NCBI GenBank assembly: GCA_000004695.1
Contig: CM000150.2
Location: 4,128,001 to 4,192,000, forward strand
Length of the DNA stretch: 64,000 nucleotides
Direction: 5' to 3'
Origin: Dictyostelium discoideum
Taxonomy: Eukaryota
Within the stretch, counting starts at the first letter, position 1, and every line of letters starts with the position of its first letter. The position numbers and the translations under genes were made by a program. The notes beneath the pieces are model-generated. The model was not told the DNA's origin. It was given only the letters and a program-made list of their open reading frames with translations, and did not search any database. This document shows positions 10,891-44,720 of the stretch, in pieces.

Positions 10891-13800
10891 ATGAAAAATT
10901 ATTTTATTGTTTTTTTATTTCTTTTAAAACTATTATTATTATTTAATTGTATGCTTTTTTTATTTATTTTTTTAATTTTTAAATAAACAACCCATTTTAT
11001 TAATATTTTATTTTTTAAAACTTTTTTTTTTTTTTTTTTTTAAAAATTAATTTAATATAGGTTGTAATTCACAAGTTTCAATTGGAGAATTATACAATGA
11101 TGACGAAATAGATTCAAAATATTCTGATGGACAAGGTAACTACCACTTTAAATTAAATTATTTTCCAACAAGCACAAATTCAAATTACAATGGTGAAGAA
11201 TTTTTAAGTTTAGAAAAAAGTGCCTCCATAAGAGCATATAGGTTAGCTCAAAGTTGTACATTAATTGGCGCATCAGTTAAAATAGAGGATTGTCAATTCA
11301 TTGGACCATCTCCAGCCTATAATGGTCTCCCCTATTCAATCGTTATATCATCAGATCTAACATTAACAATTGCAGGTTCAATAAAAAATATTCCAATTCT
11401 TATTGTCCAAGGTCGTCTAATATTGCATCCAAATTATAATGTAACACTTTCATTCTATAAGATGCAAATCTTATCACGTGGTACTTTTGAATCTGCACCA
11501 AATCAAGGAGTTAATCATACTATCATTGTAGAAAGATCACCTAATGATCTCCAAATTGATCCATGGGATAGAAAAGATATTCCATCAATACTATCACTTG
11601 GTGGTAATGTTACGATTAGAGGTTTCGATTCAAGTTCAACATGGACTGGTTATAATGTAGCAAATCGAACATCATTCATTAGATCTTTTCCATTCACAAA
11701 TAATTTACCAATTATCAAGCTCTATGGTCATAAAAGTTTGTATACCGGTTTAGACCAATATATTAGATTGGACACTTATTTCACTGAATATATGAAAGAC
11801 TACGGCGTTGGTAAATATGCATATTCACCAGAAGGTAGCATTAATTGGCAGTATCAGAAACACGCCGTTGGTAATATATTAGTACATCCATGGAATAAAA
11901 ATGTATGGATCAAAGGTATGGGTAGTTGTTCAATGGTTTTCACTGGTTCATCAACTGTAGATATTCAAAATTCAGTAATCCTCGATTTTGGTGATACAAC
12001 ATCATCACCACTCAATTCAAATAGTAATATTCCAAATAGATATCCCATCACATTATATCACAATAAAAAGTTTGTCAAAATTGAAAACAATTGTTTTCTC
12101 CCAGCACTTTTCACAAGAGTACCACAACAAAGCTCAACACCTAGATCATTCATTGGTGCGATTCGTTCATTTGGTAATATCATTGGTAATTCATTCATAT
12201 TGTCTGAAACAAACATTGGTGGTACTGTCTATAGTATGAGTGGTATATCATTATTATATGGCACTGAACAATTTAATATTAGCTTCAATTCATTCATGTC
12301 AATTTATCCAAATAGCTCATTAAACAATCCAATTTCATCAAGTAGACAATATCCAGATAATATCGATTATATCAATAGTGGTATTATTACAACTTCACCA
12401 TACTCATTTTATGAATCAAATGTATTTGAAGGTGGATTCAAAGGTAGTTCAATTCAAATTATTCCATTACAATCAAGATCAACAATTGCTGGTTTAAATA
12501 GTGATAGATTATTAGGTGTTTACAATGGATATGAACAATCAAATCTCAATGATAAAGTAACCAATAGTATTTGGAATAAAGTTATTTTCAAAGATAATGC
12601 ATTCTTTGGTGAATCAGAATTTCGTGTTACATATCCAATGTCATTACAACCACCAATTAAAATCAACTTTTTAAGAGGTTGGCATATTAATCAAAGACCA
12701 TCAGATGTTTTACCATTTAATGAAGCAAATGTCGATTACTCATATGATTCCTCTTTTGTTGCCAATGGTTTAACTAAATACGCTTGGTATAGTTTTTCAA
12801 ATATTTTTTCAGGTAAATGTAATAGTGTTTCATTTTCCAATTCAGATTTATCATTTTCCACTTCATTATTTTCATCTTCATTCAAATGTAATTATATTTC
12901 TATCGTTGATTCAAAATACAAAATAAATTTACATGAAGGAGATAATAGTTCAACCATTTTTAAAAGATTCACTGATCAAGTATACTTTTCAAATCTTAAT
13001 GGTTCTAAAGATGCTAAAAGTTTGGCACAGTTAAATGAATTTACACCTTTCCTCAACATATCACCAAATAATAGTCAAGCAATAACTCAAAATAATTTTA
13101 CTCTTTCATTCCTTCCAAGTTCTATAAGTTCATTTGAAAGTTTAAATCAATCAATTGAAGCCATCGTTGATGGTGTTTATCAAAATGTTACATTAATTAC
13201 TTTGCCATTTGATCCAATTCAATCAATGCCTATTCAATTACCACCATCTACTTCTAGTTTATATACAGTGGTTTTATCATCGAAATTGTCACTACCAGCT
13301 AGTCTTAACTTGAGCCTTCCAGAAGTAGGATCTTATTTTGCAAGTACTTATCTTTTAGATAACAATGCAAAAAATTTCTACCTTGGTATCGATTTAGCAC
13401 CATCCGATAGTAATACACCACGTAAACTTTCAGTAAATGGTAAAGATTGGACAAGATGTGATTGGATTCAATCATTAAATAAATGTACAACCTCTGGTAT
13501 GTTCTCATTGAGTTCTGTTGATATTCCATTTGGAACTGGTAGTGGTGGTCAAGATGAAATTTCAATGATTAAAACTTACCTTGGTAATGATGTAACCAAT
13601 GGTATTCCAAGTACACTCAATATATCATTAGCAGGTCCACATTCATACAAGTTTTATTTATATTCATTTAATTCAGATTGGACAGATTCAATCATTAATC
13701 CAACACCATTATTTTCAATTAAAATCAATGGTAAATATCAAGAACCAATAACAAGATCAGCACCAATATATCTTCAATCTAAAAGATATGGTCCATTCTA

Positions 13801-13933
13801 TTGGAATAATATTAATTCAAATGAACAAGTTTTATCAATTGATTGGGCAACTGATAATATTAAATATTCAATTCCATTATCTGGTATTGAAATTTATTCA
13901 AGTATTCAAACTCCATTCTCAATCCCATATTAA
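10891..13933 (+). CDS. Family-1 secreted Ser/Asn-rich protein of about 977 aa. Exons are 10891..10948 (signal peptide) and 11061..13933.
   Basis: The 58-nt first exon, MKNYFIVFLFLLKLLLLFN, is nucleotide-identical to the first exon of the minus-strand paralog at 42918..42861. The donor is GTATGC and the acceptor ATATAG. The body has repeated hydrophobic/Gly-Ser strands (NVWIKGMGSCSMVFTGSSTVDIQNSVILDFGDTTS; IGAIRSFGNIIGNSFILSE; ISLLYGTEQFNISFNSF) that suggest a parallel beta-helix. The C-terminal region is conserved (…WTRCDWIQSLNKCTTSG…FYWNNINSNEQVLSIDWATDNIKYSIPLSGIEIYSSIQTPFSIPY*). Confidence 0.7.
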
Positions 13934-14035
13934 CAAATGGTAAATCTTTTTTTATATTTGTTCCATTCACAGTGACTCAACGAAAAAATAAAAAATAAAA
14001 AATAAAAAAAAATATAACTTTTTTTAAAAAAAGTT

Positions 14036-14049
14036 TTGGTTGCGATATC

Positions 14050-14080
<31 letters not shown>

Positions 14081-14530
14081 ATTTGGCGATTGGTTCAACG
14101 GACGCTATCGAAGATGACCAAAGGAAAACTGATTGTCGATCTCGGTTTGAATATTCAAAAAATATTGAAAAAAAAAAAAAAAAATATGGAAATAATTTTG
14201 TGTAACCCATTATTTTCACTCCTCACAATAAAACATTTCATATCCTCTTTATTAATTTTATTATTTATATTTTTTTTTTTTTTTCATTGGTGTTGTTTCA
14301 GAATAAGATTCAAAAAAAAAAAAATTTTTAATTAACTTTTTTTAACTGTAAATAGAGACTGGTACCTGATGTGTTGTGATTGAGAGAATGATAAAATAAA
14401 TATTCGCTGTATCCTAACAACTTTTTGTTTATATTTTATAATGAAAGATTATAAAATATTATTTTACGACAAAAAAAAAAAAAATACTTTTCGTTTATTT
14501 TTTACAAATCACAGTAAAAAAAAAAAAAAA
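14036..14530. repeat. Orphan partial copy of the conserved non-coding module found upstream of the family-2 genes.
   Basis: About 85% similar to 14600-15110 and 19640-20130. Shared blocks include ...ggcgattggttcaacggacgctatcgaagatgaccaaaggaaaactgattgtcgatctcggtttgaatattcaaaaaatattg..., ...gtgtaacccattattttc..., ...ggtgtgttgtgattgaga... and tttcgtttattttttacaaat. No coding exon follows this copy. Confidence 0.7.
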
Positions 14531-14583: not shown

Positions 14584-14599
<16 letters not shown>

Positions 14600-14622
<23 letters not shown>

Positions 14623-15110
14623 AAAAAACATTGCCAAAGAATTTTTTGGTGGCTGGTTGAAAATGAAAGGGCGGTATTGAAGATGAATAATGGAAACTGA
14701 TTGTGGATCTTGGTTAGAATATTCATAAAAAAAAAAAAAAATTAAAATTAAAAAAAAAAAAAAAAGTGGAAATATTTTCGTGCAACCCATTATTTTCCCA
14801 CCTCCAATTTTTTTTTTTAAAAACGTTAAACATAACAAACTTATTTTCACATTCTTTATATTAATTTTATTTTTTTTTCATTGGTTTTTTTTTTGCTGGA
14901 TCAAGATTCAAAAAAAAAAAAATAAAAAAATTTTTTAAAAAAAAAAATAATTTAATAATTTGTTGACTGTTAATAGAACAAGTGTTTGCCTCAGGTGTGT
15001 TGTGATTGAGAATGCCGAAATTAATATTCGCAGCATCTTATCAACAAAAGTGGAACCACTTTTCGTTTATTTTTTACAAATTATAGAAAATTATAATTAA
15101 AATAATATTA
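14600..15110. promoter_or_regulatory. Conserved upstream non-coding module of family-2 gene copy 1. It is unusually GC-rich for intergenic DNA here.
   Basis: Homologous to 19640-20130 and partly to 14036-14530. It contains the motif TTTCGTTTATTTTTTACAAAT at about 14556 and about 15062. Confidence 0.5.
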
Positions 15111-15327: not shown

Positions 15328-18300
15328 CAGAAAAATAAAATATTATTCAGTTTTAAATTATTTTAATAGTAAAAAAATCAATCAATTAAATAAATAAATC
15401 ACCGGAGGTACTCTTGTGTTACAAATTTGGTTTCACAATTATCATATTTTAATTTATTTTAGAATTTTTTTTTTTTTTTTTTTTCTAATTTTTTTTTTTT
15501 TTAATAATTTAAAAATAATAATAATAATATTAATATAATAATAAAAATCATTTAAAAGATCCAACAATTGTTAGTTTTAGAAAGCCAGTTGAAAAAGTAT
15601 ATCCAAGTGAATATTGTTTGCCATCTTTCACTATATTGATTAATTATCCAGATCCAATCCAATATAATTATCAATTAGGTTTATATGATAGGAGTGGAGG
15701 GTATGGTGGCAGCATGCCATCTGCCGTAAATGGAACCTTATATCTTTTTACACTTACACATAAAGTTCCAATTGGTAAAAATCAACCAGTTTCTTTGTAT
15801 ATCCAAGATACCTCAAAAAATCCATGGTTTACTTTTGATTTCAATAACTATACTACCTATGATTGCGATCCACTTCCACCTGTTACTATGAAATCAAAAC
15901 AAAATACTTGGATTAAAACTAGTGGCCAATATTCCAATTTAATTTGGTACCATATGGTTGAAGTTTCAGGTTTAGATAAATCAGCTCCATACGATGCTTT
16001 TACATGTAATGTTCCAAAGCCATTTATTTGTATGTTCCAAGAGTTTCTTAATGGTCCAAAACCAATCAATTTTTATTTCCAAGTTGGAATTTATACGACA
16101 GATGTAAACTTCGCCCCATTCAATGTAACTGTTACAGATAAACTAGGTAAAGTTTTACTTAATAGTCTTTTTGATGGTTTAAGTGCACCAGCAAACCCAC
16201 CTGTTTCAATTAGATCCTTAGAAAATTATCCAATCAATGGTTCAACTGTTACTAAAAATGAAATGGTTAATGATGCAATGTATATTATGAATATCATAAA
16301 CAAAAATGCTCTTTGTGGTATTTCATCACCAAAAGATTTTTTGATTTCAAATATATTAATCCCAGTTTTAGGTACACCTGCAAATGCTTCTTACATTGGT
16401 TTCTCATCTTTTAACTATCAAAATAGTCCAATTAAATCCCATGTTCAGATCATTGATAGTCAAGGTACAAAAAGAATTGGTATTGATAATGTGCTTTTTG
16501 TTAATCGTAAGTATTTATATTTTTATTTAGATTTTTTTTTATTTTTTATATATACTAATTATAATTTTGTATTTATTATTTTAAAATAGCAAAATCTTAT
16601 GATAATGTCATTGAAAATGTTCAAAATGCAACCTATGTTAAAAGCTCTAATATTAATAAAACTTTAATTAATATTAAGGCTGATGTTTCATTTAATCCAA
16701 AAGCTACTTTAACAAGTAGCTTTTCAACTTCTTTATACCAAACAGTGTTAGCATATCCATATGGTTATTCAAATGGTACAGTTAAATACCATTCAGTTTC
16801 ATTGTCATCTGCATCTCCAGAGTATTCCACTTCTTCAAATTCATATATAATTTTAGGCTCTCCATCTGAAATCGGATCCGGTAATTCATCACTAATCACA
16901 GTTAATCCAAATTCAACAATAGGTAAGAATTTATCTTTTATAAAATTACTTTATAAACATCGGCTTATATTAATCATTTTATCATATATTTTTTAATAAT
17001 ATTGTTATTATGCTTTAGAAACAAAAATACCACAACTTTTGAAAGTTGAAACCGTTTTCCTTTCATATGAAAAAGTACTTACCAGAGTTTTTGCTAAAGA
17101 TGTTGATTCTGGTATTTCATTTTTGTATTTATCAAATTTAAATAAAGTTTCCTCTGCCGATTTAGTATATGGTGATAATTTCAATGGTGTTTATGAATCT
17201 GTTGAAACATTTACCACCATGTATGGCAATGAAAGACCAACCGTTTCAATCTATGATAATGCTGGTAATAATATTCAATACAATAATATGCAACCAACAT
17301 TCGATACATCATTCAATATGATCCCTGAATACCCTGCTTACAGTATGTATTTTTTAAATAATATTAATTTCTTTTTAAAAAAAAAAAAACAAACTACTAA
17401 ATTATTAATAAAATTACTTTATTATAGCAATGATTAAAAACCAAGCCAATTTAGACCCATACACTTTCACTGGTTTTGAATTTAAGTACAATGATGTTGA
17501 TGTTTCAAATGGTCCATTCAATAATACTTTATGTATGAACTTTGCAGGTTCCAATAAAACAATGACTCCACGTTTCTTACAATTTTCTTTAGCATTAAAT
17601 CCGGAAAAGGCATCATTAGATAACGCCACACCAGGCTCATGGGATGAAGTCAAAGGTATGTTTTGTATGGATTTCCAAATTCCAGCAAGAATTTTCACTG
17701 GTGAATATACATATGCTGTTCTCATTCCACCATTCGTTTATGACTCTTACTATTTTGCTATTTCAGTTGGTAGTAAAGCTCAATTAAGAGTTAACTCAGG
17801 TTTTGCTGATCAAATGCCACCTATCATTACTGAATTCTCTTCATATCCATCAAATGCTGTTAATGTCACTCAAGATACTGTTGTCGGTTGGAATATTAGA
17901 ATTGAAGATTCTCCAAATGGTTTAGCAAGTGGTGAATTTAATATCACAAGTGATTTCGATTTAGAACCATATAGAATTAAGATTACTCCAGCCAATGCTG
18001 TATCTGGTGATATTTTCAGTTCTACATATCAATTAAGAATTCCAATTAAAGCAAACACTTGTAGATCTCAATCATTTAGAATTTCATCAGCATCAATTAC
18101 TGATACAATGGGTCATACTTCAGTTTTACCATCTTCTGGAAATGTTAATCCATTATATAAATTCTTAGAATCACCACACTTGGTTTTAAATATTACTTGT
18201 CCACAAGCTATCATCGATAATACCCCACCATCTTTAATTAGTTTCTCAACTGTTAGTTCAATCGAAGTTGGTGCTTATAAAGATTTTAGAAATGTTACAT

Positions 18301-19175
18301 TTACCTTCAAAACATCAGATTCTGGTTCTGGTATTTCATCAAGACACAATCCAAAAATCTATTTATCATCAGGTGAATTTGATCAAATTTCAAAGATTAG
18401 TACATTGGTATCCAATGTAAATGGTGTCGCTACTTATACCTGCACTATTGAATTACCATATGGTTATGGTTCATATAATGGAATTCTTGTTTCAATATAT
18501 GGTATTGTTGATAATAAATTAAATATTAATGGTTATTCATCAGTTGATCTCCAACAACTCGGTTTCCAAAATACAATTAAAGTTTTATATTCTGATGTAC
18601 CAGTACTTGATTACACAAGTTCAATTAAATCAACTGAATCATCATTGACTATCTATGGTCATAAATTTGGTATCGATAGAAGTAAAGTTACATTACAAGT
18701 TGATTATATGAAGGGTCAAGGTTGGAAGAATACAACAATCTCATTCTTTTCTGGTATTATTTTAATGACTGATAATATTACACCAACATCAACACCATTC
18801 TACGTTCGTGTTATTGTAGATGGTAAAATTTCAAATCAACTTTTAGTAGTTCCAATCATTGTTGGTGATAGTCCATGTAGTTATGAAGTTATTCAATCAA
18901 TAGTTGCTACTTGGATCGATAGTGAAAAATATCCATATCTTCAAGCATCTATCACTATTAAAAATACAGGTACAAGACCAATTAAAGCATTTAGTTTCAT
19001 TATTGAAAAAATTGCTTATGGTCAAATTTGGGGTGTTGATGCAAATGGTAATAATAGATACACTTTACCATCATATAATTTAATCATTAATCCTCGTGAT
19101 CAATATAGTTTCGGTTATATCATTCAAGGTACAACTGTTGCTGATCTCAAACAAGTCACTTATACTTGTCTTTAA
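15232..19175 (+). CDS. Family-2 secreted protein of about 1,137 aa, tandem copy 1. Exons are 15232..15292, 15559..16506, 16590..16922, 17019..17342 and 17428..19175.
   Basis: Exon 1 is a signal peptide, MKLISIIFSLFLIINLVFST. All donors are GTAAGT/GTAAGA/GTATGT and all acceptors AG, and the phases are consistent with the ORF-track frames at 15618, 16745, 17039 and 17430. The exon structure is identical to the paralog at 20273..24208. Product unknown: Cys-poor, Ser/Thr/Asn-rich, with many N-x-S/T sites. Confidence 0.75.
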
Positions 19176-19639
19176 AAATTTCAATTTAGTTTTGGAATAA
19201 TAAAAAAAAAAAACCCTTTTGGAGTGTAAAAATAAAAATAAAACATTCAAATTTGCCGTCAGTAAAAAAAAAGATTTAATTTTATTTATTTTAAAAATAA
19301 ATTTAGTATATATGAATAGAGTACTCAAAAATGAACAAAATGAATTCTTTAAATAAAATTAATTGTGTTTAATTATTTTTTATATTTTTTTATTTTTATA
19401 TAAAATATAAATATTTGTCTTTCATACTCTAGAGAATATTTATTTATTTATTTTTTTTTTTTCGAATAACGGCTAAAATTGGCATGGACAAATACCATCG
19501 CGGTATGAAAAAAAAAAAATAAAAAAAATAACAAAAAAAATTAAAAAATAAAAAGATGAAAAAATTATACGACCTATTCATCCTAATTAACTTAAAAACT
19601 CGTCATTCGGTGATTGCGATATCAAAAAAAAAAAAAAAA

Positions 19640-20130
19640 AAAAAAGTTAATAAATTAAAAATATGGCCCAAGAATTTTTTGGTGATTGGTTGAAAATGAA
19701 AAGACGGTATCGAAGATAACTAATGGAAAACTGATTGTCGATCTTGGTTTGAATATTCAAAAAATATTGAAAAAAAAAAAAAGTGGAAATAGTTTCGTGT
19801 AACCTATTATTTTCCCACCTCGAAATTTTTTAAAAATATTAAATTAAACATAAAAAACTTATTTTCATATTTTTTTTTTAATTAATTTTTTTCATTGGTG
19901 TTGTTTTAGAATCAAGATTCAAAAAAAAAAAAATAATAAAAATAAAAATAAAAATAATAATTTTAAATAGTTTGTGCTGACTGTTAACATAACAAGGGAT
20001 TTGACTCAGGTGTGTTGTGATTTGAAGAATGCTGAAATCAATATTTGCTGCATCTTATCAACAAAAACGAAATCATTTTCGTTTATTTTTTTTACAAATT
20101 ATAGAAAATTATAATTAAAATAATATTTTT
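19640..20130. promoter_or_regulatory. Conserved upstream non-coding module of family-2 gene copy 2.
   Basis: See 14600-15110. It contains TTTCGTTTATTTTTTTTACAAAT at about 20072. Confidence 0.5.
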
Positions 20131-20522: not shown

Positions 20523-23500
20523 TTATTTTTCATTTTTTAAATAATTTAAAAATAATAATATTAATGTAAATTTTTTATTATTATTTTAAAGATCCAACAA
20601 TTGTTAGTTTTAGAAAGCCAGTTGAAAGAGTATATCCAGGTGAATATTGTTTGCCTTCTTTCACTGTATTGGTCAATTATCCAGATCCAATCCAATATAA
20701 TTATCAATTAGGTTTATTTGATAAGAGTGGAGGATATGGTAGCAACATACCATCTGCTGTAAATGGAACCTTATATCTTTTTACACTTACCCATAAAGTT
20801 CCAATTGGTAAAAATCAACCAGTTTCTTTGTATATTCAAGATTACTCAAAAAACCCATGGTTTACTTTTGATTTCAATAACTATACTACCTATGATTGCG
20901 ATCCACTTCCACCTGTTACTATGAAATCAAAACAAAATACTTGGATTAGATCAAGTGGCCAATATACCAATTTAGTTTGGTACCATATGGTTGAAGTTTC
21001 AGGTTTAGATAAATCAGCTCCATACGATGCTTTTACATGTAATGTTCCAGAACCATTTTATTGTGCATTCCAAGAGTTTCTTAATGGTCCAAAACCAATC
21101 AACTATTATTTCCAAATTGCAATTCGTAAAAGTGATGTAAATTTCACCCCATTCAATGTAACTATTACAGATAAACAAGGTAAAGTTTTACTTAATAGTC
21201 TTTTTGATGGTTTAAGTGCACCAGCAAACCCACCTGTTTCAATTAGATCCTTAGAAAATTATCCAATCAATGGTTCAACTGTTACTAAAAATGAAATGGT
21301 TAATGATGCAATGTATATTATGAATATCATAAACAAAAATGCTCTTTGTGGTATTTCATCACCAAAAGATTATTTTATTGGAAATACATTAATCCCAGTT
21401 TTAGGTACACCTTCAAATGCTACTTACATTGGTTTCTCATCTTTTTTATATCAAAATGGTCCAATTGAATCTCATGTTCAAATCATTGATAGTCAAGGTA
21501 CAAAAAGAATTGGTATTGATAATGTGCTTTTAATTAATCGTAAGTTTAAAAAATTATAATAATTATTTTAATCTTTTTATATAATCACACTAATTATATT
21601 TTAATTATTTTTATTATTAAACAGCAAAATCTTATGATAATGTCATTGAAAATGTTCAAAATGCAACCTATGTTAAAAGCTCTAATATTAATAAAACTTT
21701 AATTAATATTAAGGCTGATGTTTCATTTAATCCAAAAACTTCTCACACAAGTAGCTTTTTATCTTCTCAAAGAGAAACCGTCTTAGATTATCCATATGGT
21801 TATTCAAATGGTACAATTAAATACCATTCAGTTTCATTCTCAAAAACATCTCCAGAGTATTCCACTTCTTCAAATTCATATATGAGTATAAACTCTCCAT
21901 CTGATATCGGAAATGGTAATTCATCACTAATTGAAATTGCTACAAATTCAACTATAGGTAAGAATTAATATTATTATTTAAAAAAGATAAATTATTAAAT
22001 ATATTAATCATTCGATCATATTTATTATTATTATTATTATTCTTAAGATTCCAAAATACCACAACTTTTGAAAGTTGAAACTGTATTCCTTTCATATGAA
22101 AAAGTACTTGTCAGAATTTTTGCTAAAGATGTTGATTCTGGTATTTCATATTTGCATTCTACAAATTTGCATAAAATTTCCCCAGCCGATTTAGTATATG
22201 GTGATAATTTCAATGGTGTTTATGAAACTGTTGAAACATTAGCAACTATGTATGGTAATGAAAGACCAACCGTTTCAATCTATGATAATGCTGGTAATAA
22301 TATTCAATACAATAGTATGCAACCAACATTCGATACATCATTCAATATGATCCCTGAATACCCAGTTTACAGTATGTATTTTTAATATTAAAAAAAAAAA
22401 AAAAAAAAAAAAAACAAACAAAACATTAAATAAATTATTAATAAAATTACTTTATTATAGCAATGATTAAAAACCAAGCCAATTTAGACCCATACACTTT
22501 CACTGGTTTTGAATTTAAGTACAATGATGTTGATGTTTCAAATGGTCCATTCAATAATACTTTATGTATGAACTTTGCAGGTTCTAATAAAACAATGACT
22601 CCACGTTTCTTACAACTTCCTTTAGCATTAAATCCAGAAAAGGCATCATTAGATAACGCCACACCAGGCTCATGGGATGAAGTCAAAGGTATGTTTTGTA
22701 TGGATTTCCAAATTCCAGCAAGAATTTTCACTGGTGAATATACATATGCTGTTCTCATTCCACCATTCGTTTATGACTCTTACTATTTTGCTATCTCAGT
22801 TGGTAGTAAAGCTCAATTAAGAGTTAACTCAGGTTTTGCTGATCAAATGCCACCTATCATTACTGAATTCTCTTCATATCCATCAAATGCTGTTAATGTC
22901 ACTCAAGATACTGTTGTCGGTTGGAATATTAGAATTGAAGATTCTCCAAATGGTTTAGCAAGTGGTGAATTTAATATCACAAGTGATTTCGATTTAGAAC
23001 CATATAGAATTAAGATTACTCCAGCCAATGCTGTATCTGGTGATATTTTCAGTTCTACATATCAATTAAGAATTCCAATTAAAGCAAACACTTGTAGATC
23101 TCAATCATTTAGAATTTCATCAGCATCAATTACTGATACAATGGGTCATACTTCAGTTTTACCATCTTCTGGAAATGTTAATCCATTATATAAATTCTTA
23201 GAATCACCACACTTGGTTTTAAATATTACTTGTCCACAAGCTATCATCGATAATACCCCACCATCTTTAATTAGTTTCTCAACTGTTAGTTCAATCGAAG
23301 TTGGTGCTTATAAAGATTTTAGAAATGTTACATTTACCTTCAAAACATCAGATTCTGGTTCTGGTATTTCATCAAGACACAATCCAAAAATCTATTTATC
23401 ATCAGGTGAATTTGATCAAATTTCAAAGATTAGTACATTGGTATCCAATGTAAATGGTGTCGCTACTTATACCTGCACTATTGAATTACCATATGGTTAT

Positions 23501-31689: not shown

Positions 31690-31694
<5 letters not shown>

Positions 31695-33457: not shown

Positions 33458-33459
<2 letters not shown>

Positions 33460-34057: not shown

Positions 34058-34117
<60 letters not shown>
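33458..34117 (+). mobile_element. Composite of TRE5 fragments. First is a truncated copy (end of B-module-like region, ORF1 start, internal deletion, C-module-like 3' end, oligo(A)). Next is the target-site repeat 'cttgatcgttatat' at about 33791. Last is an ORF2 C-terminal fragment with a 50-nt poly(A).
   Basis: 33504-33690 is about 98% identical to 31771-31960. 33693-33790 matches the 3' terminal module repeated at 35388-35470. Poly(A) lies at 34065-34117. Confidence 0.6.
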
Positions 34118-34119
<2 letters not shown>

Positions 34120-34864
34120 ATACAACCTTAAAAGGCACCTGTAATATCTAAAAATAAAATTAATAAAATAAGTCATATCTCAAGAAGAAGCAACTAAAAA
34201 TTGCGTTATTCCATTCAAAAAAAAAAATTGATCGTTATATTCAGGTCAAAAGAAAGATTAATCACCCAACTCTACCATTTAGAGAAGCCAGATCAATCAC
34301 AACTATCAAAGGAAGAGACTTAGCATGGAGGTATTTACTCAAGGCACTTCCAAAACACCATGGGGAGAATTGCCACTCATGTAAAGAAGAAGAGTCGTCT
34401 ATGCACATCTTCTTCGAATGCAAATCAATAAAACAGGATATCGACTCAATCTATCAAAAGGTCTGTAAAGACTATAACAACATTTACCACGGTCCATGGA
34501 GCGAAAAAGTTCTCGGAAAATTACTCACACCATTCTCATCAAATCTGATAGGAGCCATTATGGAATCGATATGGTACAGAAGAAATCAAATAAAATTCAA
34601 CGATAACACTACAATAATAACAGAGAACCAAATAATTCATAAAAATCAAAAAAGCGAGAGTTACCGAATGGGATAGAACAAGAAAGATAGTAGAAAAGCA
34701 ACTACGTCAAGAACTAAGATGCACTGATAACCGAGAGTCAATCAATCGGACCGCATCAATAAAAAGAAGACTCGAAAAATTCAGCCACAACTGGAACTCG
34801 AAACTCATGACCATAAACATCCCGTAACACTTCATACCATACTGCTCATATATCACCAACTACT

Positions 34865-34895
<31 letters not shown>
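34120..34895 (+). mobile_element. TRE5 fragments. A 3'-terminal module plus oligo(A) comes first, then the target-site repeat 'ttgatcgttatat' at 34229. Then follows an ORF2 C-terminal roughly 200 codons with a CCHC-type box (..NCHSCKEEESSMHIFFECKS..) and a poly(A) at 34868-34895.
   Basis: ORF 34401-34676 and surrounding frames. The Cys/His motif is like other non-LTR ORF2 C-termini. Confidence 0.6.
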
Positions 34896-34899
<4 letters not shown>

Positions 34900-35084
34900 A
34901 TAAAAATAATAATAATAATAATAAAAATATAATAATAATAATATAATAATAATAATAATAAAAAAATAAGAATAACAAGAAAAAAAAAAAAAAAAAAATA
35001 AAAAAAAAAAAAAAAAACTCCAAATAAACTCTCCTAGAACACACTCAAATTGAGTGATGTTATTAAAAAAAAAAAAAGATCGTT

Positions 35085-35323
35085 ATATTTTTTTTTCAAT
35101 AGAAAGAAATAAGATGAAAATTACAAAAAAACAAATATTAAGCAAAACAAATTCCTACAAAAAATAAGTGAAATTGTGGATAAAACTCAAAAAAAAAAAA
35201 AAACAATTCAAATATGTCATCAACACCAATCATGAAGCTGATGATAAAATAAAAGATTTGGAAAAAAGTTTGGACAAAAAAGATGTTTTAATCAAAAGTA
35301 ATAATAAAATTCAAAATTTTAAA

Positions 35324-35367
<44 letters not shown>

Positions 35368-35480
35368 CTAACCCCTCTTTTAGAGACCCTGTAAAAAACT
35401 ACAAATAAAATACGATCTAGCATCTCAAGGAGAAGCAACTAATAATTGCGTTATCCAATTCAAAAAAAAAAAATCGTTAA
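35085..35480 (+). mobile_element. Truncated TRE5 copy. It is preceded by the target-site repeat 'gatcgttatat' at 35078 and contains ORF1 start, an internal deletion, poly(A), and a 3'-terminal module.
   Basis: 35112-35300 is homologous to 31771-31960. 35388-35470 is homologous to 33693-33790. Confidence 0.55.
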
Positions 35481-35525
35481 TTTTTTTAAAAGAGAATTAA
35501 ATTCAAAATAAGATAACTTAAGACA

Positions 35526-35536
35526 GGGATTCGAAC
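35526..35536 (-). promoter_or_regulatory. Ex-B box (GTTCGAATCCC on the minus strand), 35 bp downstream of tRNA-Ile. It is embedded in a half-tRNA-like segment (..AGTGGTGCCAGAATTAGATCACAAGTTCGAATCCCTGTCTTAAG..).
   Basis: B-box consensus. The spacing is the same as for the tRNA-Lys ex-B. Confidence 0.55.
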
Positions 35537-35570
35537 TTGTGATCTAATTCTGGCACCACTTAAAATGTTC

Positions 35571-35643
35571 TGCTCGATGCAGGGATCGAACCTGCGACCG
35601 TGGCGTTATTAGCACCACGCTCTGCCGACTGAGCTAATCGAGC
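35571..35643 (-). tRNA. tRNA-Ile (anticodon AAU), 73 nt.
   Basis: Minus-strand sequence: GCTCGATTAGCTCAGTCGGCAGAGCGTGGTGCTAATAACGCCACGGTCGCAGGTTCGATCCCTGCATCGAGCA. All four stems are perfectly paired. Anticodon loop CTAATAA. Confidence 0.9.
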
Positions 35644-35649
35644 TAGGAT

Positions 35650-36400
35650 GAAAATAATGTAATTGTAATGAATCTCGTATTCCGATTCCTATGGAATACT
35701 CTTTATAATTTGTATATACTTGTGTGACCCTTGAACACACAGAAATAATTAATAATAAATAATAAATAATATTATATCTCTTATATAATATAATAAAGCT
35801 TTCGTTTGTGCACAATTTGGAATAAAACAACAATGAATTAATTTTTATTTTATTTACTGTTTATACTAAAATTAATTTTACTAAAGAAACCATTGGTAAA
35901 ATTTCTGAGAGTAAAGTAAGAATCTTGTATTTGTTAACGTCTTTTCAGTTACAGATTTATATCTATATTTGTATTTTACCAGGGATAAAAACTTTATATA
36001 TTAATTTATGTCGCTTAATTATTCGCGATTATTACAATAATATAATAAATCAGGTGTACTGGTTTATTGAAGTTAATATATAATTAAAAAAATAAGAGTT
36101 TATTTGTATATTTAAGAAAGTAAATACAATGATTTTTTTTTAATATTTTTAGAGTCTTTATTTTAATATTCCGAGTACCAGGATTAGCCTCCTAAAGTCA
36201 TTTAGTATATAATATTATTTATTGTTAACTATTACGGCAAAACTTCTAAAGTCGGTTATGACTAGTAACTAAATTATATTTTGATTCTTATGATTTCCAT
36301 ATTAATATATGTCAATACATAAATCCATATTGGTTTTAATATGGTGAATCATTACAATAATTTTTTTTACCGAAATTTGTAATAAACTAAATCCCGATTC
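35650..36400. mobile_element. Non-coding element of about 750 bp, not A-rich, beginning 18 bp upstream of tRNA-Ile. It is possibly a remnant of a tRNA-targeted LTR retrotransposon (DGLT-A-like) or a solo LTR.
   Basis: Its composition differs sharply from the flanking TRE5 A-rich DNA. Both ends carry a related TGTAAT..ATC[TC]CG[T]ATTCC sequence (35661-35686 and 36381-36404). There is no ORF. The position, 13-33 bp 5' of a tRNA, is where DGLT-A elements are known to integrate. Confidence 0.3.
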
Positions 36401-36750
36401 CAAAAAAAAAAAAAAGAAACAACAAACACAAAAAAAAACTTTAAAATATCACCTCAAACCAACGTGAAGGATTCAGTAAAATATGAAAATACCTCTCCAC
36501 ATAGTAACAATACCATCAAACCTAACAAATAGATCACCACCCTTAACACACTCTTCAACCTTTAAAAAAAAAAAAAAAAAAAAGATACACAACAAACCTT
36601 ACTACCTTCAACAAAAGGCACTAAAATTAATTAATAAAATGATATTCATCAAGAAGAAGCAACAAACATTAAGTTATTCCTGACCAAAAAAAATAAGTAA
36701 CCAAATCTAAAAAAAAAAAAAAAAAAATTAAGTAACCGAATCTAAAAAAT
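36400..36750 (+). mobile_element. Further TRE5-like ORF2-3'/C-module fragments with oligo(A) tracts, ending in a pair of direct repeats (taagtaacc[a/g]aatctaaaaaa) around an A-run.
   Basis: 36440-36700 is homologous to 33960-34250, the ORF2 end plus 3' module. Confidence 0.5.
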
Positions 36751-37015
36751 ATATATTTTTTAATTATTCTCTTGATAAACTAGTAGAATCAAAACAAAAA
36801 TTTAGAAGAAAAAAAATACACCATAACCGTCGCAAGAACATTCCAAGGTTAGCCAAACAACGAAATTCGCCACTCCACAAATTTAAACTTCCAAATAGGC
36901 GATATATGGTTTTTAAGATATCTGTTTTATTTTATTTTTATAATTTTTTATTACAATGATTGTTTACAAAAATTTAGAGTTGAAAAATCGAATTTATAAA
37001 AAAAAAAAGAATTCA

Positions 37016-40000
37016 TTAAAACGGGATTGGGAATGGAGTTTGAATACTTGAATAAATTTCAATACCAGATAATGGAATTGAATATTTAATATTATCAGTT
37101 GCCCAATCAATTGATAAAACTTGTTCATTTGAATTAATATTATTCCAATAGAATGGACCATACTTTTTATAGGTTAAATAAGATGGTGCTGATCTTGTTA
37201 TTGGTTCTTGATATTTACCATTGATTTTAATTGTAAATGATGGTATTGGATTAACGATTGAATCTGTCCAATCTGAGTTATAAGAATATAAATAAAATTT
37301 ATATTGATGTGGACCTGCTAATGAAATGTTGATTGTACTTGGAATATTATTGGTTTCATCATTACCAAGGTATGAAGTTATCATTGAAATCTCATCATTT
37401 TCTGTGATTTCAGATGGAATAAATGTCATTGATGAATTTGGTGTGAATTTACCTGTAGTTGTACATTTATTTAATGATTGAATCCAATTACATTTTGTCC
37501 ATTGTTTACCAAAAATTGATAATGCACGTGGTGGTTGTGGTTCATCACCGACAATTGTTGGTGGTGATAAATCAATACCGAGATAAAAATAATTTGCACT
37601 GTTATCAACAATATATGTACCTGCAAAGTAAGAACCAACAGCAAATTTTTCATATCCTGAAGTATTTGGAAAAATTGGTTTAGTTGATAAAACCACTGTA
37701 TATGGACCATTGGCACTTTGTGGTAATTGAATAAACTTTGAATGAATTGGGTTGTCAAGTGGATCAATATTTGAATTATTTTGAAAAATTTCATCATCAA
37801 TTATAGTTTCAAGAAGTAATGTTCTATTAATAGGAGGTGAATCAAAATTTGGAATGAATGTAAAATTTAAACTATTTTGAGTTAATGGTGGATTGATAAT
37901 ACTCATTGGTGATAGTTGGTAAAATGGATATAAACGTCCAAACATACCAGATAACCTATGAATTCTTGTACCATTAACATTTGAAAGGTATACTTGATTA
38001 GCGAATCTTTTAATGAAAGTAACAGTACTATTTCCAACATGAATCATTTGTGTGAATTTTGAATCAACAATAGAAATGTAATTGCATTTGAATGAATCAG
38101 AGAAAAATTTATAAGATGATGAAAAGTTTGCATTCTTTAATGAAACACTATTACATTTACCTGAAAGATTATTAGTTTCTGCAAAATTCTTTCTTATTGT
38201 ATATAAATCATATTGAACCAACGATGAATCATAAGAGTAATCTACATTTGCTTCATTTGGTGGTAATGTTTTTGATGGTCTTTGATTAATATGCCAACCT
38301 CTTAAAAAGTTGATTTTAATTGGTGGTTGAAATGACATTGGATATGTGACACGAAATTCTGATTCACCAAAGAATACATTATCTTTGAATATAACTTTAT
38401 TCCAAATACTATTGGGTACTTTATCATTGAGATTTGATTGTTCATATCCATTGTAAATACCTAATAATTTATCACTATTTAAACCAGCAATTGTTGATCT
38501 TGATTGTAATGGAATAATATGAATTGCACCACCTTTGAATCTACCTTCAAATATATTTGATTCATAGAATGAATATGGTGAAGTTGAAATAATACCACTA
38601 TTGATATAATCGATATTATCTGGATATTGTCTATTTGATGGTACTGCAGTAGTATTTGAATAAATTGATATGAATGAATTATAACTGATGTTGAATTGTT
38701 CAGTACCATATAACAATGAAATACCACTCATACTCAATCCATCAGTTGATGATTCTTTTAATACGAATGAATTACCAATGATATTACCAAATGAACGAAT
38801 TGCACCAATGAATGATCTTGGTGTTAAACTTTGTTGTGGAGTTCCTGGATGAATTGCTGCTAAAAAACAATTATTTTCAATATTTACTGATTTTTTATTG
38901 TGGTATAAAGTAATTGGATATCTATTTGGAGTGTTATTATTTTCATCTAATGGTAATGATGTTGTATGTCCGAAATCATAAAATACTGAATTTTGAATAT
39001 CAACAGTTGACGAACCAGTGAAAACCATTGAACAATAACCAATACCCTTAATCCATACATTTTTATTATAAGGATTTATTAAAATAAAACCAGTATCACT
39101 ACCTGTGGTTGGATCCCAGGCATATTTATTTTCATTATGGAAATAATCTTTAACCATATTTGTGTAATAGGAGTCCAACTTGTATTGTTCAGTACTTATT
39201 ACATCTCTTGAACCACCCAATTTAATAATTGGTAATCCATTATTTGTGAATGGAAATGATCTAATGAATGTTGTTTCATTTGTTTTATCATAACCAGTCC
39301 ATGTTGAACTTGAATCGAAACCTCTAATTGTGACATTACCGCAAATTGAAAGTATTGATGGAATATCTTCTCTATCCCATTGAGCAGTATTAGCATCGAT
39401 TATTTGTTGTACAACGATTGTATGATTATAAGTTTGATTTGGTGTTGATTCAAAAATACCATTTGGTAAGATTTGCATCTTATAGAATGTAAATTTTGTA
39501 TCATTGTTTGGATCTAATAATAAACGACCTTTAACAACAAGGACTGGAATTATCTTTGGTGAACCTGAAATTGTTAATGTTCTACCTACTGGTACATAGA
39601 TAGTAACATTTCCTTTAACAAGTAATGAAGAGTCAGAAGGTAAAATATATCCTGCATCATTTTGGAAACCACTCTGTTGTGAAGTTATTTTATAATTACA
39701 ATCTGTTATGCTTGCTGTTTGACCATGTAATACACAATCATTTAATAATGTAACTTTGGTAACTTTTAAAAGATTTTTATCTAAATTATAAAAATTTTCA
39801 CCAGTGTAATTCGAATTTGTACTTGTTGGGAAATAGTTAATATTATAAAATTCACTACCTTCACTATCATGAATAATATTGGTTAAATTAAAATTGTATA
39901 ATTCTTCATTTGAATTAATTGGAATTGAGAATGGAGTTTGAATACTTGAATAAATTTCAATACCAGATAATGGAATTGAATATTTAATATTATCAGTTGC

Positions 40001-42748
40001 CCAATCAATTGATAAAACTTGTTCATTTGAATTAATATTATTCCAATAGAATGGACCATACTTTTTATAGGTTAAATAAGATGGTGCTGATCTTGTTATT
40101 GGTTCTTGATATTTACCATTGATTTTAATTGTAAATGATGGTATTGGATTAACGATTGAACCTGTCCAATCTGAATTATATGAATATAAATAAAATTTAT
40201 ATTGATGTGGACCTGCTAATGAAATGTTGAGTGTACTTGGAATATTATTGGTTTCATCATTACCAAGGTAAGAAGTTATCATTGAAATTTCATCATTTTC
40301 TGTGATTTCTTCGCCAATGATTGTCATTCTTGAAATTGGTGAGATTTTACCTGTAGTTGTACATTTATTTAATGATTGAATCCAATTACATTTTGTCCAT
40401 TGTTTACCAAAAATTGATAATGCACGTGGTGGTGATGTAAAGTGATCATCGGTTGGTGGTGATAAATCAATACCAAGATAAAAGTTATTTGCACTGTTAT
40501 CAACAATATATGTACCTGCAAAATAAGAACCTGCTGGATAATTAGTACCATCATTATAATTTACTTTAGATGATAAAACTACTGTATAAGGACCATTGGC
40601 TGATTCTGGTAATTGAACAAACTTTGATTGCGTTGAAGAACCTGGTAAAATTAAGAATGTACCATTTTGAACGTCATCATCAACTATTGTTTCAATAGAT
40701 TGATTTGTACTACCTAAAACTGATTCAGAGTTTGGAATGAATGTGAATGTAAAATTATTTTGAGTTAATGGTTGATCAATAATACTCTTTGGTGATAGTT
40801 GATAAAAAGGTAATAGTCCAGTTACTGAATCTAAAAAACTTCCTTTTGTACCATTAACATTTGAAAGGTATCGTTGATTAGATAATTTTTTAATAAAGCC
40901 AACACTATCATCATAGTCTTTTATTTGTTGTGAGAATTTTGAATCAACGATTGAAATGTAATTGCATCTAAAAGAATCTGAGAAAAACGCATAAGAAAAT
41001 GATAAATCTACATTCTTTAATGAAACACTATTGCATTTACCAAAGAGTGTATTGGATTCAGTAAGATAGATTTTTATAAAATCACCAATTAATGATGAAT
41101 CATATGAGTAATCTACATTTGCTTCATTTGGTGGTAATGTTTTTGATGGTCTTTGATTAATATGCCAACCTCTTAAAAAGTTGATTTTAATTGGTGGTTG
41201 AAATGACATTGGATATGTGACACGAAATTCTGATTCACCAAAGAATACATTATCTTTGAATATAACTTTATTCCAAATACTATTGGGTACTTTATCATTG
41301 AGATTTGATTGTTCATATCCATTGTAAATACCTAATAATTTATCACTATTTAAACCAGCAATTGTTGATCTTGATTGTAATGGAATAATATGAATTGCAC
41401 CACCTTTGAATCTACCTTCAAATACATTTGATTCGTAGAATGAATATGGTGAAGTTGTAATAATACCACTATTGATATAATTGATATTATCTGGATATTG
41501 TCTACTTGATGATTCTACCACAGTGTTTGTATAAATTGATATGAATGAATTATAACTGATGTTGAATTGTTCGGTACCATATAATAATGAAATACCACTC
41601 ATAGCCATTCCGGTTGAAGATTCACTTAATACGAATGAATTACCAATGATATTACCAAATGAACGAATTGCACCAATGAATGATCTTGTTGTTGAACTTT
41701 TTTGTGGAGAATTGATTGATGGTAAAAAACAATTATTTTCAATATTTACTGATTTTTTATTGTGGTATAATGTGATTGGATATCTATTTGGAATATTATT
41801 GATTTGATCCAATGGTGATGATGTTGTATGTCCGAAATCATAAAATACTGAATTTTTAATATTTACAGTTGATGAACCAGTGAAAACTATTGAACAACTA
41901 CCAATACCTTTTATCCAAACATTTTTATTATAAGGATTTATTAATACATGACCAGTATGAGGTGTTTTCATTGGATCAAATGCATATTTATCATTATAAA
42001 CATTCTTTGTCATGTTTGTATAATAATTATCTAACTTATATTGTTCAATACCCACTACATTTCTTAAACCACCTAATTTAATAATTGGTAATCCATTATT
42101 TGTGAATGGAAAAGATCTAATGAATGTTGTTTGATTAATTCTATCATAACCGGTCCATGTCGAGCTTGAATCGAAACCTCTAATCGTAATATTACCACCA
42201 AGAGAAAGTATTGATGGAATATCTTTTCTATCCCATGGATCAATTTGGTAATCATTAGGTGATCTTTCTACGATGATAGTATGATTAACTCCTTGATTTG
42301 GTGCAGATTCAAAAGTACCACGTGATAAGATTTGCATCTTATAGAATGAAAGTGTTACATTATAATTTGGATGTAATAATAGATGACCTTGAACAATAAG
42401 AATTGGAATATTTTTTATTGAACCTGCAATTGTTAATGTTAGATCTGATGATATAACGATTGAATAGGGGAGACCATTATAGACTGGAGCTGGTCCAATG
42501 AATTGACAATCCTCTATTTTAACTGATGCGCCAATTAATGTACAACTTTGAGCTAACCTATATGGTCTTATGAAAGCACCTCTTTCTAAACTTAAAAATT
42601 CTTCACCAGTGTAATTTGAATTTGTGCTTGTTGGAAAATAATTTAATTTAAAGTGGTAGTTACTTTGTCCATCAGAATATCTTGTATCTATTTCGTCATC
42701 ATTGTATAATTCTTCAATTGAAACTTGGGAATTACAATCTATATTATA

Positions 42749-42790
<42 letters not shown>

Positions 42791-42918
42791 AAAAAATAAA
42801 ATATTAATAAAATGAGTGTTGTTTATTTAAAAATTAAGAAAATAAATAAATAAAACATACAATTAAATAATAATAATAGTTTTAAAAGAAATAAAAAAAC
42901 AATAAAATAATTTTTCAT
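37016..42918 (-). CDS. Family-1 secreted protein of about 1,950 aa, made of two complete family-1 modules fused head-to-tail in frame. The minus-strand exons are 42918..42861 (signal peptide) and 42738..37016.
   Basis: The first exon is identical to that of the 10891 gene. Module 1, roughly aa 20-960, ends ..IEIYSSIQTPFSIP. Module 2 starts directly with INSNEELYNFNLTNIIHDSEGSEFYNINYFPTSTNSNYTGENF.., which is homologous to the start of exon 2 (SIEELYNDDEIDTRYSDGQSNYHFKLNYFPTSTNSNYTGEEF). It runs to ..IQTPFPIPF* with no intervening stop, signal-peptide exon or intron. Confidence 0.7.
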
Positions 42919-43725
42919 TGTGTGTTGTTGATTGATTTGAAAAGTTTGTTAATAATAAAAATAAATAAATTTTCATTACCTTTTTATAATAAATTTTTTA
43001 CAATGAGAAAACATTTTAATCCATGATTAATAACTAATGTTTAATTGTTGGTAACTAGATATTATTTAATAAAGTGTGTTTATTTGATTTTGAAATACAA
43101 AGAGATTATTTTTATTAACATTTTTTTTTTTTTTTTTTTTTTTTTAACCCCAAACAAATCACAAAAAAAAAAAAAAATTAAAAAAAAAAAAATTAAAAAA
43201 AAAAAATTAAAAAAAAAAAAAAGTAAATATTGATAAGATTAAAATCTAACACAAAATTTTCATAGTTTTTTTTTCTTAATATTCAAACCAAGACTGACAA
43301 CCAGTTTTCCATTGGTTATCTTCAATACCCTTTTATTTTCCACCAATCACCAAAATATTTCTTGAACATTTTTTAATAATTTTTTTTTTTTTTTTTTTTT
43401 TTTAAAAAATGGTAATAACCAAATGATGGTTTTTAAATTATTTACGATGAATGGTCATTTTTTCATTTTTATTTATTAATTTTTTTTCTTATTTTTTTTT
43501 TTTTTTTTTTTTTTTTTATAAATAAAAGAAATTAATTTTATAAAATAAACACAATTAATTGAAGATTTTTTTTATTATTTTTTTTTTTTTTCTTAACAAA
43601 ACAGATTTATATTTATTTACTTTTTTAAATGTTTTGTTATTATTATTATTACAATGATTATTTATTTTTCAAAAATTTATAGTTGAAAAATCGAATTTAT
43701 AAAAAAAAAAAAGATTAATCATTGA

Positions 43726-44357
43726 TTAAAATGGGATTGAGAATGGAGTTTGAATACTTGAATAAATTTCAATACCAGATAATGGAATTGAATATTTAAT
43801 ATTATCATTTGCCCAACCAATTGATAAAACTTGTTCATTTGAATTAATATTATTCCAATAGAATGGACCATATCTTTTAGATTGAAGATATGTTGGTGCT
43901 CTTGTTATTGGTTCTTGATATTTACCATTGATTTTAATTGAAAATAATGGTATTGGACTAATGATTGAACCTGTCCAATCTGAATTAAATGAATATAAAT
44001 AAAACTTGTATGAATGTGGACCTGCTAATGATATATTGAGTGTACTTGGAATACCATTGGTTACATCATTACCAAGGTAAGTTTTAATCATTGAAATTTC
44101 ATCTTGACCACCACTACCAGTTCCAAATGGAATATCAACAGAACTCAATGAGAACATACCAGAGGTTGTACATTTATTTAATGATTGAATCCAATCACAT
44201 CTTGTACAATCTTTACCATTTACTGAAAGTTTACGTGGTGCATTACTATCGGATGGCGCTAAATCGATACCAAGGTAGAAATTGTTTGCATTATTATCTA
44301 AAAGATAAGTACTTGCAAAATAAGATCCTACTTCTGGAAGGCTCAAGTTAAAGACTT
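43726..44357 (-). pseudogene. 3' fragment, the last roughly 208 codons, of a family-1 gene. It is most similar to the C-terminus of the 10891-13933 gene and has lost everything upstream at a junction with transposon DNA.
   Basis: Product: ..LSLPEVGSYFASTYLLDNNANNFYLGIDLAPSDSNAPRKLSVNGKDCTRCDWIQSLNKCTTSG..IQTPFSIPF*. It is about 93% identical to the same region of gene A, with a 1-codon deletion. Nucleotide homology to the parent stops at about 44357. Confidence 0.7.
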
Positions 44358-44720
44358 TATATCAAAATTGGAAAAAGAAAAAGAATTTATATTGGGTGAT
44401 AGAGGATTTGTTGGTGTTGGAAGGTTAGTATTAACTATTCCAAAAGGTAAAAGAGATTATGAACAGAAACAACAGATATAGATCAAAAATCAATAAGAAT
44501 AATTATTGAAAATGTGTTTGCTAAAATAAAAAGATTCTTTATTACAAGTATGCCACTAAGATATAAATTTTCAGTAGGATCAATTGATATGGATAGTGTT
44601 CAAGAAAAACACCACAAAACATGGTGTGTTGTAGGCTATATTATAAATTTGTTTAAACCAATAAGAGATCTAAAAAAAAATCTTAAAAAAATGACAATAA
44701 ATAATAAAATAATTTAATAA
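44347..44720 (+). mobile_element. C-terminal remnant of a PIF/Harbinger-type (DDE_Tnp_4) transposase gene. It is frameshifted and abuts the family-1 pseudogene.
   Basis: Frame 1: ..EFILGDRGFVGVGRLVLTIPKGKRDYEQKQQI*. Frame 3: QKSIRIIIENVFAKIKRFFITSMPLRYKFSVGSIDMDSVQEKHHKTW... These match the conserved (L/I)(L/V)xDxG(Y/F) and S.R..IE..F..LK.RF.IL motifs at the C-terminus of Harbinger/PIF/IS5-like DDE transposases. They are separated by a -1 frameshift. Confidence 0.55.

Follow-up and report, generated by a model that had tools for sequence, protein, structure and literature searches.

How does a gene for a putatively secreted protein come to carry the same large module twice, and what might that module do? 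The question is raised by a 64,000-nucleotide stretch of Dictyostelium discoideum DNA (GenBank assembly GCA_000004695.1, contig CM000150.2, positions 4,128,001 to 4,192,000 of the forward strand), here called the window and numbered from its first letter; its proteins match D. discoideum, which makes it AX4-type sequence of chromosome 1, and its composition is 20-30% GC. A preliminary description made from the letters alone had reported three loci that share a module of about 950 amino acids, and tblastn searches and alignments bear this out. They are a single-module gene (gene A, DDB_G0271024 or Q55CG9, a "hypothetical protein" identical to the 976-amino-acid spliced product), a two-module gene (gene B, DDB_G0270066), and a gene fragment (fragment F). 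Beyond A, the two modules of gene B (B1 and B2), and F, tblastn found no further copies in the window. As we read the evidence, the module belongs to a dictyostelid family remotely related to the G8/CEMIP-TMEM2-type beta-helix proteins, it would bind an extracellular polysaccharide, and gene B looks like an old fusion of two tandem genes.

A two-module gene beside its single-module relative

The loci compared with the window come from D. discoideum isolate ACTFIR (L001), D. dimigraforme (L002), D. cf. discoideum (L004), and the ACTFIT assembly (L005), the last of which matches the window at 99.5% identity across 14.4 kb. The features of genes A and B are as follows.

10597..10890, plus strand: upstream/promoter block of gene A; counterpart in gene B at 43227-42919, 86% nucleotide identity
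10891..10948, plus strand: gene A exon 1, 58 nucleotides, putative signal peptide MKNYFIVFLFLLKLLLLFN-, ending in phase 1
10949..11060, plus strand: gene A intron 1, GT..AG (GTATGC...ATATAG), very AT-rich
11061..13933, plus strand: gene A exon 2, mature single module including the stop; tblastn match
11327..12451, plus strand: predicted G8-like domain and beta-helix core of module A, mature residues 89-463
11336-11647, plus strand: weak, sub-threshold Pfam G8 match in module A
12815..13930, plus strand: predicted C-terminal beta-sandwich region of module A, mature residues ~585-956, from the secondary structure of the AlphaFold2 (AF2) model
42861..42918, minus strand: gene B exon 1, 58 nucleotides, nucleotide-identical to exon 1 of gene A
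42739..42860, minus strand: gene B intron 1, 7% GC
42738-37016, minus strand: gene B exon 2, holding both modules
39920..42738, minus strand: gene B module 1, amino acids 1-959 together with exon 1; 5' third ~96% identical to A
37016..39919, minus strand: gene B module 2, amino acids 960-1926, no signal peptide, stop included
41106..41424 (module 1), minus strand: exact 319-nucleotide match to 38235-38553 (module 2), a gene-conversion tract
39929-40160 (module 1), minus strand: exact 232-nucleotide match to 37031-37262 (module 2), a gene-conversion tract

The identity of the two 58-nucleotide first exons, claimed earlier, is confirmed, and so is the joining of two full modules in frame: gene B encodes a continuous, stop-free product of 1926 amino acids. 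Its two modules, each of about 960 amino acids, meet at nucleotides 39920/39919. At the amino acid level A and B1 are 74% identical, A and B2 63.5%, and B1 and B2 74%. Module 2 begins (I-NS..NEELY) at the position where exon 2 of a single-module gene starts (C-NSQVSIGELY), so that alignment upholds the earlier placement of its onset. The ratio of nonsynonymous to synonymous substitution rates (dN/dS) is 0.37-0.59 across both modules, with 0.37 for module 2 against the ACTFIR locus; both modules are under moderate purifying selection.

The database protein of gene B starts differently. The AX4 model (P0030, 1911 amino acids, beginning MTIHH-) joins a 13-nucleotide exon (43458-43446, minus strand) to exon 2 through a 707-nucleotide intron (42739-43445), and the ACTFIT annotation uses the same 13-nucleotide first exon. 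That exon falls within the strain-specific insertion described below. The 58-nucleotide signal exon is kept in the ACTFIR and D. cf. discoideum loci and is used by annotations P0026 and P0028. Because the short exon lies inside the insertion and the signal exon is conserved elsewhere, the 5' model of the preliminary description is the better one, and the AX4 annotation is probably wrong, stripping the signal peptide from the database protein.

The three modules do not diverge evenly. Nucleotide identity forms a mosaic: between A and B1 it is ~96% up to about codon 190, and the block running from the promoter to that same point is 91% identical overall between genes A and B. The nearest relatives of the modules also switch across species, with module 2 of P0028 closest to A, and P0005 and P0007 closest to B2. 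The exact 319- and 232-nucleotide runs shared by B1 and B2 show ongoing gene conversion; ectopic and intragenic conversion keeps evening out patches among A, B1, and B2, as the mosaic identity shows.

Fold and likely role of the module

The preliminary description could match the module to no characterized family. On the strength of profile comparisons and predicted structure, it now takes its place among the remote relatives of the G8/CEMIP-TMEM2-type beta-helix proteins. By direct comparison, module A matches Pfam G8 (PF10162) over amino acids 112-215 at 13.1 bits (E 0.092), which fails the gathering cut-off of 22.9; no other Pfam family matches A at E ≤ 1, and there is no CAZy match at the sequence level. 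A profile built from 22 family members and searched against 1.84 billion representative proteins gave 74 matches. Full-length relatives occur in D. purpureum, Heterostelium album, Cavenderia fasciculata, Acytostelium subglobosum, and Synstelium polycarpum, and the module family therefore spans the Dictyostelia; the D. purpureum orthologue is labelled "G8 domain-containing" in UniProt. Metagenomic proteins matched profile positions ~105-430 at E values of 1.7e-12 to 1e-4, and these carry Pfam G8 (E down to 1.7e-21) together with CEMIP_beta-hel. Aligned to them by hhalign, the family reached 99.65% probability over 356 columns, sharing the motifs GHTT..PLDD, N.PDRYP...H, SFG.I.GN, and LLYGTEQ. 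One intermediate sequence, P0050, matches the structure of the TMEM2 ectodomain (8C6I) at E 2.8e-5. A further profile search (A2) returned no new sequences.

Structure prediction points the same way. With 22 close paralogues as the only input, AF2 performed poorly (predicted local distance difference test score [pLDDT] 58.7); with five distant dictyostelid orthologues added, it gave an all-beta model with a pLDDT of 80.6 and a predicted template-modeling score (pTM) of 0.86. Foldseek matches of this model to the PDB are weak (best E 6.4e-5, low whole-chain TM-scores). The modelled module superposes on solved right-handed parallel beta-helix (pectate-lyase-like) proteins, and its G8 region leads on into such a helix, just as that of 8C6I does, so that the beta-helix suspected in the preliminary description gains support from both the predicted structure and the G8/CEMIP homology. 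In the C-terminal part, local Foldseek matches to a CBM35 and a xylan-binding module (E ~2e-3, target-normalized TM 0.35-0.52) suggest that this region possibly carries a CBM-like carbohydrate-binding jelly-roll; beyond these weak CBM35-like matches, Pfam detected no lectin-like (GG/POMGNT1-type) domains of the CEMIP/TMEM2 kind. The predicted architecture thus comprises a signal peptide, a divergent G8 domain running into a CEMIP/TMEM2-type right-handed parallel beta-helix, and C-terminal beta-sandwich domains.

Several features bear on function. Exon 1 encodes the hydrophobic N terminus MKNYFIVFLFLLKLLLLFN-, an exon conserved in the ACTFIR, D. cf. discoideum, and D. dimigraforme loci, and the gene A protein ends in ...TPFSIPY without a hydrophobic tail. 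The helix core holds a conserved cluster of charged motifs, and E402, R326, and H333 (mature numbering) form an invariant cluster. The most conserved motifs (GHTT..PLDD, N.PDRYP...H, SFG.I.GNSF, and LLYGTEQ) would lie in the concave groove of the helix. N-glycosylation sites, which had earlier seemed numerous, reflect amino acid composition only: the 15 sequons of A compare with 17.0 ± 3.5 after shuffling, and the 33 of B with 34.3 ± 4.9. A search of the literature for gene and UniProt identifiers of the family found a single preprint, which mentions the paralogue Q55CZ0 (40% identical), detected in the extracellular-trap fraction of lipopolysaccharide-stimulated vegetative cells (bioRxiv 10.64898/2026.03.20.713133). 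Genes of a CBM49 matrix type neighbor the family genes. From the signal exon, the apparent lack of a membrane anchor, the glycan-enzyme fold, the charged cluster, these CBM49 neighbors, and the detection of Q55CZ0, we infer a secreted protein that binds an extracellular polysaccharide and probably also cleaves or modifies it. Hyaluronan is not known in Dictyostelium. Candidate substrates are the matrix of the amoeba itself and the surface glycans of its bacterial prey; either would run along the concave groove.

Probable origin of the two-module gene and of the neighboring fragment

Two-module proteins of 1901-1925 amino acids are present in another D. discoideum isolate, in D. cf. discoideum (twice), and in D. 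dimigraforme. These orthologues occupy two syntenic loci, one with PLDc_2 and C2 neighbors, as in the window, and the other with SHQ1 and TPR neighbors, and in each of the five the fusion junction falls at the same point. The reading frame is continuous at the junction in the window and in three of the four orthologue loci. In D. dimigraforme the frame of module 1 instead meets a stop (...ETPTSLCLYFYF, then the stop codon), and the protein P0029 therefore needs an 81-nucleotide intron at this point (12852-12932 of L002; GT..AG, AT-rich, phase 1). Intron 1 of the family is also in phase 1 (exon 1 has 58 nucleotides in the window and 52 in L002). The acceptor of the junction intron (tag/AT AAT TCA) is homologous in context to the intron-1 acceptors of gene B (tag/AT TGT AAT TCC), gene A (tag/GT TGT AAT TCA), and L002 (tag/AT TGC AAC TCA). 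Over about 960 codons the frame of module 2 in D. dimigraforme is intact, and this module has neither an ATG nor a signal of its own. For the two-module gene of L002 (9854-9905 and 10029 onward), the annotation likewise omits a signal exon (52 nucleotides, MKYYYIIIFLFLSILFK-, donor GTAAGT, phase 1); the deposited P0029 starts within the intron instead (MLFFNKYLID).

By this comparison the fusion is old, and the intron at the D. dimigraforme junction resembles a fossil left by it. A tandem pair of single-module genes would have fused by loss of the interval from the last codon or stop of the upstream gene through part of intron 1 of the downstream gene. What remained may have been a short chimeric phase-1 intron that used the downstream intron-1 acceptor, the state now seen in D. 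dimigraforme; because the chimeric intron uses this acceptor, module 2 would have lost its signal exon. Later loss of the junction intron would have produced the continuous 1926-codon gene observed in D. discoideum and D. cf. discoideum. The earlier proposal that a tandem pair lost a stop, intergenic DNA, and a signal exon is thus supported, and the common junction and the 81-nucleotide phase-1 intron sharpen it.

Upstream of gene B, on the far side of its promoter, lies a third family locus within a composite block.

43706..44356, minus strand: fragment F, 651 nucleotides, comprising the last 209 codons and 20 nucleotides of an A-like gene; coding part 43726-44356
44357..44720 (start 44341/44357), plus strand: C-terminal remnant of a DDE_Tnp_4 (PIF/Harbinger/IS5-type) transposase, with one internal stop/frameshift
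43226..44866, minus strand: composite insertion (F 3' flank, F, and transposase remnant), ~1.6 kb, ~300 bp upstream of the gene B ATG

The preliminary description saw in F the last 208 or so codons of a family gene that had been cut off in place by transposon debris at about 44357. The terminal codons and their junction with a PIF/Harbinger-like remnant stand, the remnant matching Pfam DDE_Tnp_4 above its cut-off (E 6e-8; 32.9 bits, cut-off 24.8; profile positions 65-142 of 158). The truncation in place does not: because the composite block is absent from the syntenic site in the ACTFIR and D. cf. discoideum loci (it is present in ACTFIT), we read F as a recent partial duplicate and not as a resident gene decayed where it stood. 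F is 96.9% identical to A (13301-13953) in nucleotides and 95% in amino acids; its frame is still open, and it differs from A by 5 synonymous and 8 nonsynonymous codons and one 3-nucleotide deletion. tblastn found no other gene parts near F in the window. A T-rich direct repeat of ~55 bp ending in GTGAT flanks the block (44915-44866 and 43222-43160) and is single-copy in ACTFIR and D. cf. discoideum; because of it, the insertion ends are uncertain by ~60 bp.

The remnant corresponds to the C-terminal half of the DDE_Tnp_4 domain of PIF/Harbinger transposons. It differs from such transposons in its length of ~125 codons, its stop/frameshift, and the lack of an N-terminal part, a Myb-like partner open reading frame, terminal inverted repeats (TIRs), and a 3-bp target-site duplication (TSD). 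It is debris, not an element. No second copy was found in the window or the compared loci, and the literature on Dictyostelium Harbinger transposons yielded nothing naming this element. Around the ~1.6-kb insertion we found no TIR or 3-bp TSD, the inverted-repeat search giving poly-A/T matches only, and capture inside a mobile element (transduplication, Pack-type) is accordingly unsupported. The 3' flank of F is a patchwork in which ~75 nucleotides past the stop resemble the 3' flank of gene B and not that of A, with a local repeat further out. Copies of a short local repeat (~60-260 bp, 80-84% identity) lie at 43266-43512, 19508-19764, 14591-14735, and 14106-14162, that is, downstream of F, downstream of A, and between tandem CBM49 genes. 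At 16859-18143 of L004, rearranged family fragments (N-terminus pieces and the last ~180 codons) stand just downstream of the D. cf. discoideum two-module gene, so that partial copies form at these loci again and again.

The insertion itself is seen in the comparison of strains. Its history would be that, recently and in the AX4/ACTFIT lineage, a ~1.6-kb patchwork that combines an A-like gene's 3' end with part of a DDE_Tnp_4 transposon was inserted upstream of the gene B promoter, most likely by aberrant break repair or template switching. On this view F is a partial duplicate, dead on arrival, that is joined to transposon debris and was probably made by repair.

How well does this history stand against its alternatives? 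That the double-module reading frame is an artefact, hiding two genes or a missed intron or stop, is hardly credible. The hidden intron or stop against which the preliminary description had warned did not turn up: exon 2 has no stop across 5,723 nucleotides and no window below 15% GC, against 7% GC in the real intron; independent annotations of four other genomes give products of 1901-1925 amino acids; and dN/dS is 0.12 against the ACTFIR locus in the 40 codons on either side of the junction. More is to be said for a single genomic in-frame deletion without an intron intermediate, the L002 intron being a later gain or a prediction artefact over a mutated or pseudogenized junction. The uninterrupted frame in the window and in three of the four orthologue loci fits this, and the splicing in L002 is a predicted one. 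We nevertheless consider it unlikely, because the L002 intron is canonical in its ends, length, and AT-richness, shares its phase and acceptor context with intron 1, and precedes a long module 2 frame lacking ATG and signal that would be explicable only by splicing.

For F, the alternative is a third resident full-length gene upstream of B that a PIF/Harbinger insertion truncated in place and that then decayed, other strains having secondarily deleted the remnant. The transposase remnant lies exactly against the break in F, the ~55-bp direct repeats could have mediated a deletion elsewhere, and family fragments do lie beside the two-module gene in L004, though on its other side. Yet the block is missing from both ACTFIR and D. 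cf. discoideum, each with a single repeat copy, and F and A are 97% identical, whereas true orthologues between these lineages diverge much more. There is also no 5' gene part, TIR, or 3-bp TSD, and F occupies the place where the absent N-terminal part of the transposase would be expected; we regard the resident gene as quite improbable. As to function, the module may instead be a non-enzymatic beta-helix adhesin or a structural component of the matrix (sheath, stalk, or spore coat) that binds without cutting, two modules doubling its valency. We find this possible but doubtful. For the TMEM2 ectodomain, whose G8 domain forms part of the beta-helix and whose active site is unassigned, even hyaluronan depolymerization is disputed (PMC10206443).

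Taken as a whole, the account of a dictyostelid family with this architecture and role and with the locus history of fusion, intron loss, gene conversion, and insertion seems to us rather probable, although several points weigh against it. Pfam G8 matches in the family are sub-threshold, with E ≤ 0.01 in 2 of 26 members, and sequence and profile searches of the PDB gave no match. The hhalign comparison is partly circular, because its targets were picked from the matches of the same profile. Literature searches turned up neither biochemical nor expression data for A or B. The D. dimigraforme intron rests on gene prediction and sequence logic, and it could have been gained there; the direction of the 1.6-kb indel is judged from one further isolate and one sister lineage.

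A bolder combination strikes us as unlikely. It takes the D. dimigraforme intron as a preserved intermediate, in which a two-domain gene arose by hijack of the downstream intron-1 acceptor (a read-through/deletion chimera) before precise intron loss, and it takes the family as amoeba-specific secreted glycan depolymerases, related to CEMIP/TMEM2, that are deployed in extracellular traps or attack the polysaccharides of bacterial capsules or biofilms. If it were true, the disputed catalytic mechanism of G8/beta-helix "hyaluronidases" could be studied in the amoeba family as a tractable microbial model.

Surrounding region and relation to known systems

A tandem duplication of ~5 kb (15618-19175 and 20651-24208, plus strand) carries in each copy a gene with a large 581-amino-acid exon encoding DUF7035, DUF7034, and the cellulose-binding CBM49; ACTFIR matches both copies, and these genes are probably the other secreted family noted in the preliminary description. 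A second insertion relative to ACTFIR and D. cf. discoideum, of ~460 bp at 45172-45632, starts with a near-perfect palindrome of ~150 bp (TTGCCAGAAGCCATTTCAAAACAAAAACGTGC...), may have an imperfect 7-8-bp flanking duplication (TTTAACA), and resembles a foldback element or one of the miniature inverted-repeat transposable element type; it could not be tied to the DDE_Tnp_4 remnant. About 6 kb at 30984-36908 with a strong A/T skew are absent from isolate ACTFIR (L001 15988-17287). This segment has retroelement-like reading frames at 31771-32625, 32763-33104, and 34401-34676, adjoins a tRNA-Lys gene (30869-30943), and contains a tRNA-Ile gene (35571-35643); it looks like a putative tRNA-targeted (TRE-type) retrotransposon insertion. 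Ordinary flanking genes encode arrestin N/C and SAM domains (8512-10233), C2 and PATROL1-like TPR domains (25563-28940), and a C2-domain protein (45872-47149).

Both genes had annotations before, and their protein adds a divergent new member to a fold and superfamily already known; the locus illustrates gene-family evolution, not a new kind of system. What it adds is a putative fold and superfamily for the Dictyostelium "hypothetical proteins" DDB_G0271024, DDB_G0270066, and DDB_G0269850 and their relatives, with testable candidate substrates in amoebal matrix or bacterial surface glycans. It also corrects a probable reference error, the 13-nucleotide first exon of DDB_G0270066, and documents the passage from tandem pair to two-module gene with what appears to be a surviving intermediate, together with gene conversion within one gene. 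No active site has yet been assigned in TMEM2 or CEMIP, so that a simple organism open to genetics, with a compact family of homologues, could be useful; this is a lead and not a result.

Among known systems, the pectate-lyase-fold enzymes and phage tailspike depolymerases (PL6, GH28, GH87, GH110, and AlgG) resemble the module in fold only, at 8-16% identity. CEMIP (KIAA1199/HYBID) and TMEM2/CEMIP2 are animal G8 and beta-helix proteins implicated in hyaluronan breakdown (8C6I). Compared with them, the amoeba module has no direct PDB sequence match, a Pfam G8 match below threshold, no detected GG/lectin-like insert, and no transmembrane segment, and their RYP.H.HH motif is reduced to RYPITL(Y/L)H. 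The closest homologues outside the Dictyostelia are the bacterial and metagenomic proteins that combine G8 with CEMIP_beta-hel (PF10162 and PF24606), at E values of 1.7e-12 to 1e-4 and ~19% identity over ~350 residues. These proteins, themselves uncharacterized, differ in having their own C-terminal domains, often Ig-like or peptidoglycan-binding tails, and share with the amoeba module the motifs GxTT..P.DD, N..RYP, and E.G.E.

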